Origin: an uncultured Bacillota bacterium
Lineage (GTDB): Bacteria > Bacillota > Dethiobacteria > DTU022 > UBA8154
Reading direction: 5' to 3'
NCBI GenBank assembly: GCA_937973635.1
Contig: CALJJZ010000035.1
Span: 103,947 to 167,946 of the forward strand
Length of the DNA: 64,000 bases
Shown: positions 33,042-39,660 of the stretch, piece after piece
Layout of the letters: every line of letters starts with the position of its first letter
How positions within the stretch are numbered: the stretch's first letter is position 1
Notes under the pieces: model-generated
The model's database searches: none
What the model was told of the DNA's origin: nothing
What the model saw: only the letters and a program-made list of their open reading frames with translations
Made by a program: the position numbers and the translations under genes

Positions 33042-34172
33042 TCAGGAGTCGATTACGGTCTGGCTGAGCCGGGTATGGGGAGGCAGGGTGAGGCGGGGCC
33101 AGATCTTGACCTCCTCCAGGAGGCAGTGTTCAGCAAGGCAGCACTCCCCTCCCAGCACCACCATCTCTCCCAGGCGGCTGTATGCCCCAATCAGGTTGTT
33201 TGCTCCAAGCAAAGCACCCTCCAGCACCGCCCCGGCACCCAGGCGATTGCCCGGGCCCAAAATACTGCGGCCTACGCTGGAGCCCCGGCTTAAGTACGAA
33301 CCTGCCCCAATTACCGCCGCAGGACCGGCCACTGCCCCTTCTTCCAGGCAGGCCCCGGCCCCCAGGAAAAGGGGGGGGAGAAGCTGCACCCCCCCAGCAA
33401 TATTTACGTGCTGCTCCATCCAGATGCCGGGGCTTACTTCTTCCCCGGGGACGGTAATCCCCCCTTCTCCAGCAAAAGCCAGGTTATGGGCCTGCCGGTA
33501 TGCCGCAAACGTCCCCAGGTCACTCCAGAAGCCCTCGACCACATACCCGTACAGGGGCATCTTCCGTGCCAGCAGCAGAGGGAATAAATCCCTGCTAAAA
33601 TCAAAAAAAGTTCCGGGGGGAACCAGCTCAAGCACTTCCGGTTCCAGGAAATAGGTGCCGGTATTAACCAGGTTGCTGAAAATTTCATGGGGAACTGCGG
33701 GCTTTTCCATATAACGAGTTATACGCCCCTCCCGGTCCAGCGCCGCAATGCCAAAGCCCCGGGGGTCATGATGCCGGAGCAAAAGCAGCGTAGCCAGGGC
33801 GCCCTTTTGCCGGTGGAATTCAAAGGCAGGGATAAGCTCAAAGCCAAAGAGCACATCACCGCTGAGAACGAGCAGCGTCTCCGAGGCACCCGGCGCGGCA
33901 TGGCGAACGCTGCCAGCCGTGCCCAGCGGCTGCGGCTCTACGGCATAAGTAAGCTGCAGCCCCAGGGCAGCGCCGTCGCCGAGATACTGCTCAATGCTCT
34001 CCGGGCAGTAGTGGAGCGTCAACACCGCCCGGCTTACGCCGCTCAACTGCAGTTTTTGGAGGATATAGGAAATTAGGGGACGGTCAAAAAGGGGGAGCAT
34101 GGGTTTAGGCAGCAGGCAGGTAAGGGGATGCAGGCGCGTGCCCAGCCCTCCGGCCATCACCACAGCGTTCAT
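33042..34172 (-). CDS. NDP-sugar pyrophosphorylase (mannose-1-phosphate guanylyltransferase-like)
   Basis: MAGGLGTRL..PKPMLP, PLGTAG, LSGD, EKP, FWSDLG, C-terminal hexapeptide repeats. Confidence 0.88.
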   Translation of the reverse strand: MNAVVMAGGLGTRLHPLTCLLPKPMLPLFDRPLISYILQKLQLSGVSRAVLTLHYCPESIEQYLGDGAALGLQLTYAVEPQPLGTAGSVRHAAPGASETLLVLSGDVLFGFELIPAFEFHRQKGALATLLLLRHHDPRGFGIAALDREGRITRYMEKPAVPHEIFSNLVNTGTYFLEPEVLELVPPGTFFDFSRDLFPLLLARKMPLYGYVVEGFWSDLGTFAAYRQAHNLAFAGEGGITVPGEEVSPGIWMEQHVNIAGGVQLLPPLFLGAGACLEEGAVAGPAAVIGAGSYLSRGSSVGRSILGPGNRLGAGAVLEGALLGANNLIGAYSRLGEMVVLGGECCLAEHCLLEEVKIWPRLTLPPHTRLSQTVIDS

Positions 34173-34256
34173 CTTGATCCCTCCCTTTGAGTTTATTATA
34201 ATCGTTCAGCCATCTTCCGGCAATCTCCGCAAAAATTTCTTTAAAAATTTTTTTAT

Positions 34257-34313
34257 AATTTTAAAAAATTTTTGCAATTTGCCCTTGACAAAAGTTTCGC
34301 ACCATGAGATAAT
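34257..34313 (+). promoter_or_regulatory. Strong SigA promoter with AT-rich 17-mer, driving candidate ncRNA 1
   Basis: AATTTTAAAAAATTTTT (34257-34273), 11 bp, TTGACA (34285-34290), N17, TGn-GATAAT (34308-34313). Confidence 0.8.
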
Positions 34314-34319
34314 CATCAT

Positions 34320-34674
34320 GCAGGTTCCGAGAGGCAGCAAAAAAACCTGCCGGCTCAACAAGAGCAGGGCCACGATCCCGAAAAAGAGCGGCAAGCGTTG
34401 GAGCGTGTCGACTCAGGGAGTGGTGTCACTATAAAGGAGAGCCGGACGTAACGGGAAAGGCAGTGCCGTAAAAGCCAAGGAGGTCCCGAGGTAATCCAGA
34501 CCTCAGGGGCCGGCCAGGCGGTGCCGGACCGGGGCAGCTTCTCCCCATGAAAAAGGAGCCTTCTCCGGTGAGCGCGGGAAAGCCCGTGCAAAGAGGCCGT
34601 GTGGCCTAACGAGCCACAGGCTGGAGAAGCCCTGGGAGAAGGAAAGGGTTTTGGAGATGTCTGTTGGAGCCTGC
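34320..34674 (+). ncRNA. Candidate large structured ncRNA 1 (about 355 nt, possibly extending to about 34815); class unknown
   Basis: Begins 7 nt after the -10; 5' GCAGGUUCCGAGAGG pairs with 3' UCUGUUGGAGCCUGC; internal helices such as 34560-34569/34620-34629 enclose two hairpins; no credible ORF. Confidence 0.72.
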
Positions 34675-34787
34675 TTGCATTGTACAAAAAAAGACGCCTC
34701 AAGCTCCCTGAGAATCATGGGCAGCACAAACTCCGGTGTCTTAAAGCAAAGCATTTTAAATTTTTAAAGCCTTTTTTAAAACTGCTC

Positions 34788-34815
34788 CCCCGCCTCCGGG
34801 CCCGGGGTTTTTTTT
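34788..34815 (+). terminator. Intrinsic terminator downstream of ncRNA 1
   Basis: CCCCG...CGGGG stem followed by T8. Confidence 0.55.
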
Positions 34816-34853
34816 ATACTAAAACCCCCCGTTATCTGACCATTTACCCCGGG

Positions 34854-35088
34854 CTATTTCATCAACCCGGGCAAGAAAGTAGCGATCTGGGGGAAGAGGA
34901 TATTGATAAACATCGCCAGGATCAAGGCCAGCCAGTACGGGGTGACCCCTTTGAACACCGTCTCCACCCGGCGCATAGGTCTGGGCTGGGGCCGGCGCTG
35001 CAGGGGCCGGCACTTTGGGCTGGCAGCCTGCCAGGACAAAAGAACCCAATAAGATGAACACAAGCAAGCAGCTAAAAAGTTTTTTCAT
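34854..35088 (-). pseudogene. TRAP transporter operon remnant: lipoprotein N-terminus joined out of frame to a DctM C-terminus
   Basis: MKKLFSCLLVFILLGSFVLAGC (lipobox)-QPKVPAPAAPAPAQT, then in another frame VETVFKGVTPYWLALILAMFINILFPQIATFLPGLMK, typical of the last DctM helix. Confidence 0.72.
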
Positions 35089-35236
35089 TTTCTTGTAGTA
35101 AGCCTCCCTTTTTATTCTGTGCGTGCTGTCAATCTGTGAAACATTTTTTTACCATGAACCCCTCTTTTAGAGAGTTCTTCCCCGGCGGCAGGCAGCACCC
35201 CCTCTAAGAAAGAGATTTTCTTTCCAGCACTATATT

Positions 35237-35252
35237 TGCAATTTCCGTGCCA
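35237..35252 (-). promoter_or_regulatory. Sigma54 -24/-12 promoter
   Basis: Minus strand TGGCACGGAAATTGCA = TGGCAC-N5-TTGCA consensus; points at the TRAP remnant. Confidence 0.88.
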
Positions 35253-35294
35253 TTACCGCAATTTAATAGAGGGAGGGAATTACCTGTCCCGGGC

Positions 35295-35311
35295 TGTCTA
35301 AAAGAGAGACA
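35295..35311. promoter_or_regulatory. Putative upstream activator site for the sigma54 activator
   Basis: TGTCT-N7-AGACA palindrome between the sigma54 promoter and the divergent activator gene. Confidence 0.45.
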
Positions 35312-35475
35312 TGGCCCTTCACAGAAACGCCGTTATCAGTTAGAATAAGGAGAAAAGCCCGGGGCAAAAGACGCATTATCTCTTCACTCCGGCATGATCT
35401 TAGGAAAGAAAAGGGTTGTCTTTGCCAAATTTGTTGTGGTAAAATGACTAATTTTAAATAAAGGGGTCGGGTCTT

Positions 35476-36852
35476 TTGCAGCTTCAGGAGAGCAAATACT
35501 GGCAGAGCATCAGACAACACCTGGATATAATTTTGGATATGTTTAACGATCCGATTATTATCATCGACCGGGAAGGGACCATCATTTATATAAATGAAGG
35601 ATATGAGCTGCAGCTGGGCGTTAAGCGGGAAAAGGTGCTGGGACGCAATGTCAAAGACAAATATCCCCGGGACAAGCTTCTGGAAACGTTGCGCACGGGT
35701 GAACTGGTAAAAAACCTGGAACACTTTAACGAAACGCTGGGCTATAATATCGTCGCCAGCTTTGTACCCATTAAAGACGAAACAGGAGATATTATTGCCG
35801 TTGCCGGCATCGGCAATATCTCTCCCGTTTATAAGCTGAATTTAAGGCTCAGCCCCATCCATTCTTTTAAGGAAACAAAGTCCACCGACAGCCTGACCAG
35901 GAAAGATATTCCTCCCAGCTTCGACAGCATTATCGGCGAAGCGCCCAAGCTGCTCAAGTGCCTGAAATTATCGGCCCAGGTGGCCAAAGCAGAAGCGACG
36001 GTCATGCTCCGGGGAGAAACGGGCGTGGGCAAAGAGCTCTTTGCCCGGGCCATCCATGATTACAGCGACCGCTGTAAAAACCCCTTTATCGCTGTAAATT
36101 GCGCAGCTATCCCCGAAAATTTAATCGAATCCGAGCTCTTCGGTTATACTGCCGGGTCTTTTACAGGCGCCCGCACTTCCGGGAAAATGGGGAAAATAGA
36201 AATGGCCCATAAAGGCACATTGTTCCTGGATGAAATAGGGGATCTTTCTCCCAGCACGCAGATAAAGCTGCTCCGTTTCACCCAGGAAAAATACGTGGAA
36301 CGGATCGGCGGGGACAAACAGATACCCATCGACGTCAGGATCATCACGGCCACCAACAGGAACCTGGAGCAGATGGTGCAGCAGGGAGAATTCAGGTCCG
36401 ATCTCTATTACAGGTTGAATGTCATCCCCATCCACGTCCCCCCTCTAAGGGAAAGGCCGGAAGATATAGGGATACTGGCCCATTATTTTTTAAATTATTT
36501 TGCGCGGAAATATGGTAAAAAAGTCGGCTTTTCTATGAAAGCCATGGAATGCCTGCATGATTACCACTGGCCCGGCAATATCAGGCAACTAAAAAACGTC
36601 GTGGAACATGCAGTACTCATCTGCACAGGCGACACCATCCACGAAAGCCATTTCAACCTGGAGCAGAATACAAATGTACATGAACTGCCCTTTTTGGATT
36701 TAAATCGGGCAGTGGAATACACGGAAAAAGCAACCATCGAAAAAGCCCTAGAAAAAGCCTATTATAACAAGAGCAAAGCCATTAAATACCTGGGAATCAG
36801 CCGCGGCGCTTTCTATGCCAAATTAAAAAAGTATAAGCTGACCGTCCCTTGA
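35476..36852 (+). CDS. PAS-domain sigma54-dependent transcriptional activator (AAA+, Fis-type HTH)
   Basis: GETGVGKE, ESELFGY, GSFTGA, LFLDEIGD, WPGNIRQL, C-terminal HTH. Confidence 0.95.
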   Translation: MQLQESKYWQSIRQHLDIILDMFNDPIIIIDREGTIIYINEGYELQLGVKREKVLGRNVKDKYPRDKLLETLRTGELVKNLEHFNETLGYNIVASFVPIKDETGDIIAVAGIGNISPVYKLNLRLSPIHSFKETKSTDSLTRKDIPPSFDSIIGEAPKLLKCLKLSAQVAKAEATVMLRGETGVGKELFARAIHDYSDRCKNPFIAVNCAAIPENLIESELFGYTAGSFTGARTSGKMGKIEMAHKGTLFLDEIGDLSPSTQIKLLRFTQEKYVERIGGDKQIPIDVRIITATNRNLEQMVQQGEFRSDLYYRLNVIPIHVPPLRERPEDIGILAHYFLNYFARKYGKKVGFSMKAMECLHDYHWPGNIRQLKNVVEHAVLICTGDTIHESHFNLEQNTNVHELPFLDLNRAVEYTEKATIEKALEKAYYNKSKAIKYLGISRGAFYAKLKKYKLTVP

Positions 36853-36875
36853 AGATGCCAGGAGATGCCAGGTGA

Positions 36876-37418
36876 TCACGGCATCTCCTTCAAGGCCGCC
36901 ACCACTTCCAGGTTGCGGTAACGTTCCTGGTGGTCCAGCCCGTACCCTACCACGTAGAAGTCTGGCAAGCTGAAGCCGCAGTAATCCAGAGGGATATTGA
37001 CGATACGCCTGGCCGGCATGTCCAGAAAAGCGCAGACGCGCAGGCTGGCAGGGTTGCGCGTCCGCAAGTTCTGCATAAGATAGTTCAGGGTCAGGCCCGT
37101 ATCCACAATATCTTCAAGGAGCAGGACATGCCTTTGCACAATACTGCTTTCTAGGTCCTTAGTAATGCGCACGATGCCCCGGGAAGAAGCAGCTCCGGCA
37201 TAGCTGGAGATGCCAATAAAATCAAGGACAAAGGGTATTTCAAGACAGCGGCTCAAGTCCACGGCAAAATAAACGCTGCCGCGCAGCACCGCTACCAGGA
37301 CAAGATCCCCCTTACCGCTGTAATCGGCTGAGATCTTTTCGCCCAGCTCTTTGACCCTAGCTTTAATCTGTTCCCTCGTCAATAAGATCTCCAAATGGTG
37401 GCCTGCCTCCTGTCCCAT
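36876..37418 (-). CDS. hpt: Hypoxanthine phosphoribosyltransferase
   Basis: VLRGS, ISSY, LLEDIVDTGLTL, VVGYGLD..RYRNL. Confidence 0.92.
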   Translation of the reverse strand: MGQEAGHHLEILLTREQIKARVKELGEKISADYSGKGDLVLVAVLRGSVYFAVDLSRCLEIPFVLDFIGISSYAGAASSRGIVRITKDLESSIVQRHVLLLEDIVDTGLTLNYLMQNLRTRNPASLRVCAFLDMPARRIVNIPLDYCGFSLPDFYVVGYGLDHQERYRNLEVVAALKEMP

Positions 37419-37427
37419 TTTTTGGCT

Positions 37428-38435
37428 TTATTCCCCTTTCTCTTCAATCCCGTATTTCTTGAGCAAACCCCGGAAATCCCGCCCATAGATAATCTTAACC
37501 TGCACTTCCGGGTAGATCTCCTTGAGGCGGCGTATTTTTTTATTTTTTTTCCAGACCAGTTGTTGTTTCTGGGTAGTCAGCTCCAGGTACAGATCCTGCT
37601 CGGGCAAATAAAAATCGGGGGTAAAGGCCTCCGTTACCGTCCCTTCGCTGTCCCACTCCAGGGGAAATGTTTTGGGCTCATACAGCCATTTGATGCGGTA
37701 AAAATCAAGCATACGGGCAAACTCGGCCTCGCTGGGGTGGGCAAAATCAGGAGCGGTGCCGGACTGGCGGTTCCCCTCGCCTCTAAGGTCGAGGGGAGTT
37801 TCAGCTTTTTCCTGCTCCCAAAAACGCTGCTCCAGTTCCTGCGCCGTGATTTCACCGGCCTCCTCTTTCAAACGGGCGGCGGTAACAATTAGGCCCGCTG
37901 CCTCCTCCGGGCCCGTTACGCCTGTATTGATGAGCAGATGGTAGAAGGTGGGGTCAAGCCAGTCATAGCCAAAGACCTGGCGCAGGTATGCTTCCCGGTC
38001 CCGGTCCTGTTCCAGAATCAGGCGCGCTGCGGCGGCCTCGTCAAGGTTGTAGAGCCGGCAAACCCGTTCAATTCTGCTCTGCATAGAGGCAAAGATCTTC
38101 ACGTGCAGCGCAGGGGGAAAGTCATGGAAGAGGAACTGGGCACCCCGCCCCACGATTACTAGATTTTCCCTGATAGCCAGATCATAAAAATATTCATGCA
38201 GCCCTTCCAGATAACGGCGGCGCCTGCTTTCGAGCTCCCATCCCGCTGCCTGGTCCGCCGGGCTGATATTTTTTTCGTCAAAAAAAGAAAGCTCCGGTTC
38301 CAGGATGCCGATGGAACGCATCCTGTCGGCGATTTTTGCTTTGTTAATCAGCAGGTAGCCCGTCTTCTCGGCAACCAAGCGCGCCACAAGTTCTCCTGCG
38401 CTGCCGAAATGACGGGAAATGGTGATGACGGCCAT
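37428..38435 (-). CDS. Cytidylate-kinase-like family protein fused to a PD-(D/E)XK-like domain
   Basis: VITISRHFGSAG, VIVGRGAQF, YHLLINT (Cytidylate_kin2-like); C-terminal FAHPSEAEFA..WLYEP..FTPDFYLPEQDLYLELTT. Confidence 0.75.
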   Translation of the reverse strand: MAVITISRHFGSAGELVARLVAEKTGYLLINKAKIADRMRSIGILEPELSFFDEKNISPADQAAGWELESRRRRYLEGLHEYFYDLAIRENLVIVGRGAQFLFHDFPPALHVKIFASMQSRIERVCRLYNLDEAAAARLILEQDRDREAYLRQVFGYDWLDPTFYHLLINTGVTGPEEAAGLIVTAARLKEEAGEITAQELEQRFWEQEKAETPLDLRGEGNRQSGTAPDFAHPSEAEFARMLDFYRIKWLYEPKTFPLEWDSEGTVTEAFTPDFYLPEQDLYLELTTQKQQLVWKKNKKIRRLKEIYPEVQVKIIYGRDFRGLLKKYGIEEKGE

Positions 38436-38517
38436 CCTCAGCCTCCAGACTTTCCTCTTCTATTCCAGGAAATTATATCATAAAAGAGGCAAAAGATTAT
38501 TAGATTATGATTAAATA

Positions 38518-38574
38518 AATTTTAAAAAATTTTTTAAAAATATTGTTGACAAACGAAGACTTTGCTTATATAAT
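38518..38574 (+). promoter_or_regulatory. Consensus SigA promoter with the same AT-rich 17-mer, driving candidate ncRNA 2
   Basis: AATTTTAAAAAATTTTT (38518-38534), 11 bp, TTGACA (38546-38551), N17, TATAAT (38569-38574). Confidence 0.88.
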
Positions 38575-38580
38575 AAGGAT

Positions 38581-38859
38581 AGACAGGTTCCGAGAGGTCC
38601 AAAGGTTAATCCTGAAACCGGTTGTCTTGAGCGGTCGGGCCAGGAGCCAGGTGAAAGCTATGAGCAGCGGGGAAGGGCGCGCCAGCGGCCATCCCGGTTC
38701 GAGCGGAAACCCGGCTGAGATGGAAGGCTGCAGGTCTGGTGCTGAAAGAAAGGGGCAAAAGGGGAAGGTGCAAGGTGCTTCCGCTAGTGCCCGTGAAAGT
38801 AGGCTCCAGGCAAAAAGAAACCGGGGGAAAAACCGATACAGGTCTGTTGGAACCTGTCT
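38581..38859 (+). ncRNA. Candidate large structured ncRNA 2 (about 279 nt), paralogous to ncRNA 1; class unknown
   Basis: Begins 7 nt after the -10; 5' AGACAGGUUCCGAGAGG pairs with 3' UCUGUUGGAACCUGUCU, followed by a U-rich tract; nested helices CCGGUU/AACCGG, CGGGC/GCCCG, GCGCCAG/CUGGUGC. Confidence 0.75.
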
Positions 38860-38922
38860 TTTATTTTTTGTCACTTTTTTTATATAGCGGTTTTATCTTT
38901 GCTCTTTATCTTTGTCGGCACA

Positions 38923-39660
38923 TTAATACCTTTCCCAGAGCGGCCGGCTTAGCTCCGCCACCTCCGCGAAAAACAGCTCCAGATCAGGGGTGACGATCTC
39001 CCTGCTCCGTTCAATAATATCTGTAAACTGGCCGAGGTCAACGGCAGTAACCTGCCGGCGCAGAAACATCTGGTCACGGTAGCCAAGGGCCAGTGAACGG
39101 GCGTCCATTTCACCCCGCTCAATAAATTCCCTGAAAAGGCGATACCCTTGCTCAAGCAGGTCTGCCCGGCCGGGGAAGATGATCTCCATGTTTTTACAAA
39201 TCCGGGCAATCGTACCCGTTGCAGCCAGGGCTTGATGCAAGCGCGTTAAAAGATCCGGCCTTCTGGCATAAAGATAAAGCTCGGCGCCCATCTCGATGAA
39301 ATTATGGGCTTTCCACCAGCCTTCTGCAGGGGACAGGTCGCAGGCTTCGAGCACAGCCTTTATCAGCGGCCTTGCTTTTTCATAACAATAGCCCTTTTCA
39401 TAATCGCGGTACTGCTGGTCACTGTAATAATCAAGGCCGCGGGGGTCAATCCCGTGGCTGATTACCCCCCGGCAGAACAGGCCCATGGTCCTGCCGTGCC
39501 CGTTAAGACTTTCCCAGAACCTGACGCCGAGGGAGTGGCTGTAATGCCAGTCATAACCGCTGAAAAACAAAACATCGGGGAAGATACTTCCCAGCACCGT
39601 TTCCAGATCCCTTTGGGCGAGGGCTTTTTCCGCAAAATATAAATGGGCCAACGGGTACAT
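38923..39660 (-). CDS. Conserved hypothetical protein, zinc-dependent phospholipase C/P1-nuclease-like motifs
   Basis: MYPLAH, LGSIFPD, SH, SHGID..LDYYSD, AHNFIE pattern. Confidence 0.55.
   Translation of the reverse strand: MYPLAHLYFAEKALAQRDLETVLGSIFPDVLFFSGYDWHYSHSLGVRFWESLNGHGRTMGLFCRGVISHGIDPRGLDYYSDQQYRDYEKGYCYEKARPLIKAVLEACDLSPAEGWWKAHNFIEMGAELYLYARRPDLLTRLHQALAATGTIARICKNMEIIFPGRADLLEQGYRLFREFIERGEMDARSLALGYRDQMFLRRQVTAVDLGQFTDIIERSREIVTPDLELFFAEVAELSRPLWERY

Follow-up and report, generated by a model that had tools for sequence, protein, structure and literature searches.

Two structured non-coding RNA genes of a previously undescribed family beside a phosphoribosyltransferase and kinase-nuclease gene pair in an uncultured Bacillota bacterium

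Two blocks in the genome of an uncultured Bacillota bacterium (GTDB class Dethiobacteria; DTU022; UBA8154; GenBank assembly GCA_937973635.1) are non-coding, highly structured RNA genes; the family to which they belong has not been described before, and they are its types A and B. They lie on the forward strand of a 64,000-nucleotide (nt) stretch of contig CALJJZ010000035.1 (positions 103,947 to 167,946), here called the window, in whose numbering coordinates are given. The type A RNA (copy 1) occupies 34320-34674 and the type B RNA (copy 2) 38581-38859, assignments supported by folding, comparison with orthologues or homologues, and compensatory changes. Both genes open with the same A/T 17-mer, AATTTTAAAAAATTTTT, a tract resembling an UP element, at 34257-34273 (+) in copy 1 and 38518-38534 (+) in copy 2, followed in each after exactly 11 bp by a promoter. 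The copy 1 promoter (34285-34313, +) consists of TTGACA (34285-34290), a 17-bp spacer and TG-n-GATAAT at 34308-34313; that of copy 2 (38546-38574, +) has TTGACA at 38546-38551 and, after a spacer of the same length, TATAAT at 38569-38574. A long helix that closes the RNA on itself begins at the seventh base past the -10, G34320 and A38581, respectively. The end motifs are CAGGTTCCGAGAGG (34321-34334) and GTCTGTTGGAGCCTG (34659-34673) in copy 1, and CAGGTTCCGAGAGG (38584-38597) and GTCTGTTGGAACCTG (38842-38856) in copy 2. The ends, CAGGUUCCGAGAGG and GUCUGUUGGARCCUG, pair in both copies with a G facing G unpaired. An outermost pair, G34320-C34674, brings copy 1 to 355 nt (helix strands 34320-34336 and 34658-34674), and AGA/UCU lengthens the helix of copy 2, giving 279 nt (strands 38581-38597 and 38841-38859). 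An initial annotation, made from the sequence alone, had listed the 17-mer, the 11-bp gap, TTGACA-N17-(G/T)ATAAT and the closing helix, and direct reading of the sequence found all of them in place.

Promoter-like sites are numerous in this region, with 15 between 33900 and 39300 against 4.5 +/- 2.1 in shuffled sequence; the promoter of copy 2 is the best of the 15 (12/12) and that of copy 1 ranks second (11/12 plus TG). The minimum free energy (MFE) is -170.1 kcal/mol for copy 1 (z -6.69; equalled by 0 of 100 shuffles) and -129.7 kcal/mol for copy 2 (z -5.72; 0 of 200), and both MFE folds recover the predicted closing helix, including the unpaired G opposite G. A search of the 2.56-Mb genome (96% complete) that allowed up to one mismatch returned exactly two sites for each end motif and none for a reversed control. 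The 3' ends of the two genes differ. Immediately past the closing helix of copy 2 is a U-run (38860-38869, +), the likely termination site. A U-run is absent after the helix of copy 1, where TGTAC (34682-34686) lies 8 nt downstream and a terminator-like hairpin (34792-34808) followed by T8 is found farther on; reading of the sequence and a promoter/terminator scan mark 34675-34815 (+) as a possible 3' extension of the type A RNA. At 38838-38857 (+), just before the U-run, the 3' helix strand of copy 2 can also fold locally as ACAGGU...ACCUGU (6 pairs, 8-nt loop), a hairpin that is possibly a kinetic terminator rivalling the long-range helix.

The blocks had been described as free of open reading frames (ORFs). 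Taken literally this does not hold, as ORFs overlap both (34099-34434+, 34355-34702-, 38543-38887+ and 38566-38874-), but with regard to coding by copy 2 it does: the 114-aa frame over this copy is interrupted by 3-10 in-frame stops in all 17 other type B homologues. A conserved peptide is thus not present among the homologues, and a coding reading of copy 2 was rejected.

The Rfam search proposed in the initial annotation revealed no described class at either block. Scanning the whole window with Rfam 15 at gathering threshold returned only a single tRNA, and for the two blocks at E <= 10 only chance matches were found, the best at 19.8 bits against a threshold of 80; OLE, GOLLD, ROOL, HEARO, raiA and the other Rfam 15 families all stayed below their gathering thresholds there. 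Across 20 loci that carry relatives of types A-D, Rfam likewise gave no match on the RNAs, and tRNAs, cyclic di-GMP elements and thiamine pyrophosphate elements were found elsewhere. A divergent copy of a housekeeping RNA was rejected, since 6S RNA (RF00013; sole match in the genome, on contig C27, 98.8 bits, and none in the window), RNase P (RF00010; contig C62, 308 bits), signal recognition particle (SRP) RNA (RF01854/RF00169; contig C42, 184 bits) and tmRNA (RF00023; contig C56, 186 bits) are all encoded elsewhere, well above cut-offs. With respect to a retron, no reverse-transcriptase domain is among the annotated neighbours in the window or at type C and D loci, a survey that included no dedicated genome-wide search. 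Literature searches on Dethiobacter and noncoding RNA, PMC6704655 included, turned up no such RNA; motif lists in the supplements of comparative-genomics papers fell outside these searches and could hold it under another name. With no known relative by sequence and structure, the family is rated as new at the level of RNA class.

Because the interiors cannot be aligned across subtypes, relatives were sought with IUPAC patterns and matched controls in place of a covariance model, an approach that may miss divergent members. A strict end-to-end pattern, which requires the two helix strands at a distance of 100-400 nt, identifies 139 sites in 86 of the 149 class genomes, compared to a single match for the reversed pattern; 39 of these genomes have one site, 42 have two, four have three and one has four. 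When the outer helix is replaced by the -35 hexamer, this promoter-anchored pattern matches 87/149 genomes (4 control matches), and the same genera are negative under both patterns. Outside the class, the strict pattern is found in only two genomes of a 401-genome sample of the phylum. A count of the terminal motifs in the genome and its relatives, also proposed earlier, thus gives two in the genome and 139 sites in the class, and, as had been suggested, the two blocks are paralogues from a genuine family of structured RNAs that have promoter architecture and a conserved closing helix in common. By blastn, copy 1 has orthologues in all four other genomes of its genus; outside the source genome only its ends are recognisable, and two short matches in other families were taken as chance. 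Copy 2 has homologues in 14 of the 24 other genomes of its family, at 70-74% identity within the genus. The records of the relatives are named Dethiobacter, 'Syntrophomonadaceae bacterium' or Bacillota metagenome-assembled genomes, and the one named Dethiobacter alkaliphilus has two copies.

From the loci that were fetched, 94 distinct RNAs of 148-380 nt were collected. Since the pattern was used to select them, it partly dictates positions 1-14 of each strand. Helix positions 7-12 are invariant among them (C-G, C-G, G.U, A-U, G.G, A-U), the 5' strand YCCGAGAGR facing YYUGUUGGR in an irregular closing helix. Positions 3-6, constrained to R or Y, vary, yet A-C and C-A are never seen, and the unconstrained positions 0 and -1 are paired in 99% and 87% of members, respectively, by five pair types. 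Covariation among homologues, which the initial annotation had proposed as a check, is seen in these flanks of the helix and, as compensatory changes, in the interiors of types A and B. Position 14 is G.U in 46 members, A.C in 31, A-U in 16 and G-C in one. The alternation between G.U and A.C suggests that wobble geometry is kept; a protonated A.C pair should presumably be disfavoured in the alkaline habitat of these organisms, which makes A.C at this position odd.

The promoter is nearly invariant. A consensus promoter is present in 92 of the 94 members, with TTGACA (exact in 91), a spacer of 17 bp (86) or 18 bp (6) and a -10, and the TG extension is found in 56 of the 92. The distance from the end of the -10 to pattern position 1 is 7-12 nt (mode 8), and transcription should therefore begin at helix base 1 or 2. 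The 22 nt upstream of the -35 are on average 85% A+T (91 members), and the 12 nt past the helix contain on average 7.3 T (94 members). The term 'strongly transcribed' in the initial annotation is best taken as a prediction from these promoter sequences. The next downstream gene is convergent in 70 of the 94 and co-directional in 21. The two members that have no promoter are second units of tandem pairs with 7-nt spacing, which implies a dimeric transcript or processing. Tandem pairs of two differing members 7 nt apart were seen at L059, L068 (reverse strand), G125, G126 and G180, and at L059 and L060 the RNA promoter is closely preceded by tRNA genes. A further recurrent feature is TGTAC, often as TTATGTAC and then TTTT, which occurs within 40 nt downstream of 31/94 RNAs and, in 28 of the 31, at offsets 7-10 from the closing helix. 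Chance would account for about 3.

At least four subtypes (A, B, C and D) can be distinguished, which differ in genomic position and are each conserved in interior sequence. Type B is located between a 245-aa gene (unk245) beside lysS and a kinase-nuclease gene, and types A, A-like and C are located after hpt2, a phosphoribosyltransferase gene. Type D is found elsewhere in the genome, after an aminotransferase gene, and the genes downstream of it vary, with a NuoF-like protein in some genomes and proC-proB in others. The structures of types A and B were derived from the same sequences on which they were tested, which flatters the pairing numbers: in type B (17 sequences) 90.3% of cells pair, as against 84.4% when shuffled and 35-54% with partners slid, and compensatory changes are seen in 18 of 45 tested pairs, while in type A (5 sequences) they are seen in 26 of 94 predicted pairs, numbers that in both cases were reached by 0 of 500 shuffles. 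Purines account for 85% of unpaired bases, and many loops are of GNRA type (GAAA, GUAA, GCAA, GUGA, GAGA); type B has conserved internal loops in which AGUA faces GAA. The minimal B forms, of 150-200 nt, are single irregular rods. The interiors had been pictured as variable 'cargo'. They do vary between subtypes, but each of at least four subtypes has conserved helices and its own genomic position, and the cargo is in this sense not free.

Between the two RNA genes of the window, on the reverse strand, are two genes with which the family co-occurs. One is hpt2 (36876-37418, -), a second copy of hypoxanthine-guanine phosphoribosyltransferase (HGPRT; TIGR01203, 192 bits against a cut-off of 150). 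It is considered the second copy because most genomes with the module have two hpt matches and genomes without it have one. The other (37428-38435, -), divergent from type B, encodes a 335-aa protein with an N-terminal PF13189 domain and an endonuclease-I-like C-terminal domain, here called the kinase-nuclease. Its N domain is cytidylate-kinase-like (PDB 3hdt and 3fdi at E 1e-22, with which Foldseek agrees). The C domain, of about 110 aa, has no Pfam family; it is kept across phyla with a motif, P-D-F-Y-L-P...E-L-T, identified by our own reading of the sequences. Profile searches match it weakly to T7 endonuclease I (four chains; best E 0.0031), and Atlas leads are Phage_endo_I and DUF1064 at 0.87-0.89. 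AlphaFold modelling with 10 sequences gave the C domain a predicted local distance difference test score (pLDDT) below 50, and with 37 sequences a mean pLDDT of 83 was reached. Foldseek of the whole model found nucleotide-kinase folds only, so that the C domain is not placed by fold. A defence system was considered and rejected, since PADLOC matches of the kinase-nuclease are weak (candidate PDC-S69, E 1.3e-4; viperin-kinase, E 0.0049) and there are none for hpt2 or the 245-aa neighbour.

The order lysS - unk245 - B - kinase-nuclease - hpt2 - A is kept across genera, and six families of the class, plus two genomes from outside, have an RNA adjoining hpt2 and the kinase-nuclease. Across the 149 genomes of the class, 77 have both RNA and protein, 10 the RNA only, 6 the protein only and 56 neither, a distribution for which Fisher's test ignores linkage and shared descent. 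Whole genera are devoid of both the protein and the RNA, including the unlinked type D (0/5, 0/9, 0/3 and 0/5). The kinase-nuclease and HGPRT genes are conserved as an adjacent pair (loci L033-L096 and L155-L171) in several Bacillota families and in Atribacterota, Dictyoglomus and Acidobacteria records. No RNA was seen near the kinase-nuclease in the records from these last three groups or in the others examined, nor in 12 of 16 further Bacillota loci.

Relatives of a different kind occur outside the class. All four genomes of one family, f38, contain elements of about 147 nt (L156, 5088-5235 and 5853-5995; L158, 3708-3857; L170; L218; L221), of which those at L156, L158 and L170 were detected with the 5'-strand motif. 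Their 5' strand, AGCCCCGAGAGGUCGGAAAGG, is the same as that of members of the class, whereas in their 3' strand, GAUCACUCGGGGCU, G-C, A-U and G-C pairs and an A.A mismatch replace G.U, G.G and A-U. The 'invariant terminal stem' of the initial annotation is thus correct for the 5' strand YCCGAGAGR and too broad for the 3' strand; what is conserved is the 5' strand within a helix that has one purine-purine mismatch. The f38 elements, each with a promoter and U-run of its own, are oriented like the next gene and placed directly upstream of hpt, of MTHFR and formate-THF ligase, or of the kinase-nuclease-hpt pair. Before hpt, the U-run is about 20 nt from the ribosome-binding site, and in one case an element lies just upstream and another just downstream of the transferase gene. 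They have no Rfam match and look like an undescribed cis-regulatory leader of purine and one-carbon genes.

Convergence on the neighbouring genes, promoters of rRNA grade and an end at the RNA's own helix lead us to read the members in the class as free-standing, abundant RNAs. Tentatively, and short of calling it probable, we favour a model in which they act in trans by presenting an irregular, sequence-specific helix to a protein. Each gene would be a self-contained unit, in which an A/T-rich tract and a near-consensus sigma-A promoter direct initiation at the first base of an end helix of about 18 bp, and in most members a U-run straight past the helix would end the unit. The closing helix, proposed in the initial annotation as a protein-binding or processing site, would serve as a sequence-specific docking site for a putative protein, and the interiors, specific to each subtype, would adopt compact tertiary folds rich in purines. 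The likeliest partners would be the hpt2 and kinase-nuclease products of the operon that the RNAs flank and are inherited with, and on synteny and co-occurrence this pair is the best candidate. The RNA may then tune or scaffold a purine-salvage or nucleic-acid-processing module, as a Y RNA does with Ro or a PyrR site with PyrR. The transferase is an attractive reader, given that RRUYCCGAGAGGY resembles ARUCCAGAGAGGYU, the site bound by PyrR. A more specific version, to which we assign a low probability, is a new ribonucleoprotein (RNP) in which a moonlighting hpt2 reads YCCGAGAGR in a PyrR-like manner in response to purine nucleotides, and in which a small ancestral form, attenuating hpt and folate genes in cis as in f38, has evolved into free, abundant, trans-acting RNAs that recruit or restrain the kinase-endonuclease encoded alongside. 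If true, this would be a purine counterpart of pyr attenuation that has evolved into a trans-acting RNP.

Several observations weigh against this model. The RNAs occur without the protein pair in G053 (100% complete), G059 (96%), G089 (97%) and G086 (93%). Conversely, about 25 additional genomes from the phylum sample, as well as the Atribacterota, Dictyoglomus and Acidobacteria records, have the pair but no detectable RNA, and physical linkage and shared descent could account for much of the co-occurrence. The hpt2 product, in which the HGPRT motifs are retained, is not basic (median isoelectric point 5.8, compared to 5.1 for the housekeeping copy; n = 20 each), and its charge lends no support to the idea of a basic RNA binder. 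The likeness to the PyrR site was judged by eye and the Rfam PyrR model has no match, the nuclease assignment depends on the weak profile matches mentioned above (best E 0.0031), and covariation in type A comes from five sequences whose own alignment supplied the structure. Finally, the f38 relatives resemble cis-acting leaders, a possibility that the initial annotation had left unconsidered.

The latter point is the basis of the main rival, a cis-acting sensor, either riboswitch or protein-dependent attenuator, of purine or one-carbon metabolism in which the closing helix and U-run form a regulated terminator. We consider this reading unlikely. In the class, such an element would act on a sense gene downstream, as may be the case for type D, or through controlled run-through as antisense to the convergent hpt2 operon or to unk245-lysS. 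It is consistent with the f38 elements, which in 4/4 genomes are co-directional and leader-like, upstream of hpt, MTHFR or kinase-nuclease-hpt, and with the co-directional gene found 25-479 nt downstream in 21 of the 94 members in the class; moreover, the 70 that converge on a gene often do so within 3-60 nt, so that run-through would be antisense. However, these same 70 members have no sense gene to control. The window copies are among those that do not occupy a riboswitch or leader position, both being convergent on the next gene, and type A has no U-run past its helix. In addition, the genes downstream of type D differ between genomes (NuoF-like or proC-proB), and a size of 250-380 nt, several paralogues per genome and a near-invariant, very strong promoter are all unusual for leaders. 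A cis-acting sensor thus accounts for f38 and type D and leaves the convergent majority unexplained. Function residing in the RNA itself, as a ribozyme or a self-assembling 'ornate' RNA of the kind recently reported for OLE, ROOL and GOLLD, would employ the helix for RNA-RNA contacts or putative catalysis. The strong folds of both blocks, the many GNRA-type loops, the purine-rich unpaired bases and the conserved AGUA/GAA loops of type B would suit such a function, as would the persistence of the RNAs in genomes that lack the neighbouring proteins and the tandem units, which with their 7-nt spacer would need cleavage or act as dimers. We nevertheless regard it as a rather improbable explanation, because the interiors evolve fast and differ by subtype, unlike a conserved catalytic core, and because the shortest members, of 148-150 nt, are plain rods.

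The remaining alternatives invoke known players and can be given very little weight. That the RNAs are Y RNAs, or decoys for a global RNA-binding protein such as Ro/Rsr, CsrA or PyrR, is suggested by a closing-helix motif that recalls the GGUCCGA and GNCGAAN0-1G motifs of Y RNAs (PMC4201824) and by the presence of three CsrA-family genes within 7 kb on contig C47 of the source genome, outside the window. As for Y RNA, the TROVE domain of Ro60/Rsr (PF05731) has no match in the source genome and matches just one of the 149 class genomes, the Y_RNA and YrlA models have no match at E <= 10 on either block, and no tRNA-like domain was found. A CsrA sponge of the CsrB/Rsm type was rejected, since GGA is barely enriched (3.9 per 100 nt, 3.3 expected) and not concentrated in hairpin loops, which hold 36 of 1046 occurrences, below their 5.9% share of bases. 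Similarly, a PyrR decoy was discarded, as neither PyrR (NF003545) nor a PyrR site above cut-off was found in the source genome; RF00515 has no match at the loci and its best match in the genome is 22.4 bits against a cut-off of 54. This group of explanations is largely refuted and, in our estimate, very improbable. Least credible of all is an explanation at the level of DNA, by a miniature inverted-repeat element, or one by a diverged housekeeping RNA. Inverted repeats do make up the terminal 13-16 nt, and several copies per genome are found in the family, but only two copies are present in the source genome, the promoter is outside the repeats, and orthologous positions between lysS-unk245 and kinase-nuclease-hpt2 are kept across genera. 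The G.U and G.G positions and the compensatory changes point to selection on RNA. The mobile-element reading is refuted by synteny and covariation, and all four housekeeping RNAs are accounted for elsewhere in the genome.

The mode of action may well resemble recognition of the Y RNA-Ro or PyrR type. Y RNAs, including YrlA, carry the terminal-stem motifs GNCGAAN0-1G or GGUCCGA and have a length of 80-130 nt, and share with the present family paired ends that form a long stem, a short conserved motif mainly on the 5' strand, a variable remainder, several paralogues and genes that adjoin that of a nuclease-linked partner, which here is a candidate only (PMC4201824 and 10.1101/312249). The present RNAs differ in their length (148-380 nt), motif (YCCGAGAGR) and neighbours (hpt2 and kinase-nuclease), and in having no Rfam match. 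The PyrR system is reminiscent of the window in that a phosphoribosyltransferase gene is flanked by RNA elements, and RRUYCCGAGAGGY can be compared by eye to the PyrR site consensus ARUCCAGAGAGGYU (PMC7430163, as given in section 16). The f38 elements upstream and downstream of a transferase gene repeat the arrangement of the pyr operon. Unlike in that system, however, RF00515 has no match at the loci and PyrR was not found in the source genome, the transferase is a paralogue of HGPRT that shows no indication of a basic surface for RNA binding, the motif is part of a long-range closing helix rather than a local hairpin, and most members of the class are not leaders. OLE, raiA, ROOL, GOLLD and HEARO are likewise long, highly structured, lineage-restricted RNAs with purine-rich loops that were found by comparative sequence features. 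Their Rfam models have no match here, and the present family differs from them in subtypes that are joined only by the closing helix and promoter and in a constant gene neighbourhood. 6S RNA likewise combines a long closing stem with a strong promoter and is stable, but has a central bubble in place of a branched interior, and a normal 6S gene is present elsewhere in this genome.

To our knowledge, large, well-folded bacterial RNAs of a new class are seldom found, and every one so far has revealed biology that was not expected. The present family offers several experimental handles, including a predictable start and end of the gene, an invariant 8-nt strand in an irregular helix, natural subtypes, minimal forms of about 150 nt, a cultured relative (Dethiobacter alkaliphilus) and two concrete candidate partners alongside. 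With leader-like as well as free-standing members, it could show how a cis-regulatory RNA becomes trans-acting. It also draws attention to the kinase-endonuclease and HGPRT gene pair, which is conserved across several phyla without an assigned role.

Two further genes of the neighbourhood deserve mention. The 245-aa protein kept between lysS and type B across genera is encoded at 38923-39660 (-); it has no Pfam family and a weak match to zinc phospholipase C (E 0.025). A sigma-54 activator with PAS, AAA+ and HTH_8 domains is encoded at 35476-36852 (+), between type A and hpt2. It was not found by tblastn in the loci of 18 relatives and may thus be an insertion in the source genome. Its N-terminal domain is PAS, not CARF, and its AAA-HTH part matches the PADLOC model RtcR_PspF2.

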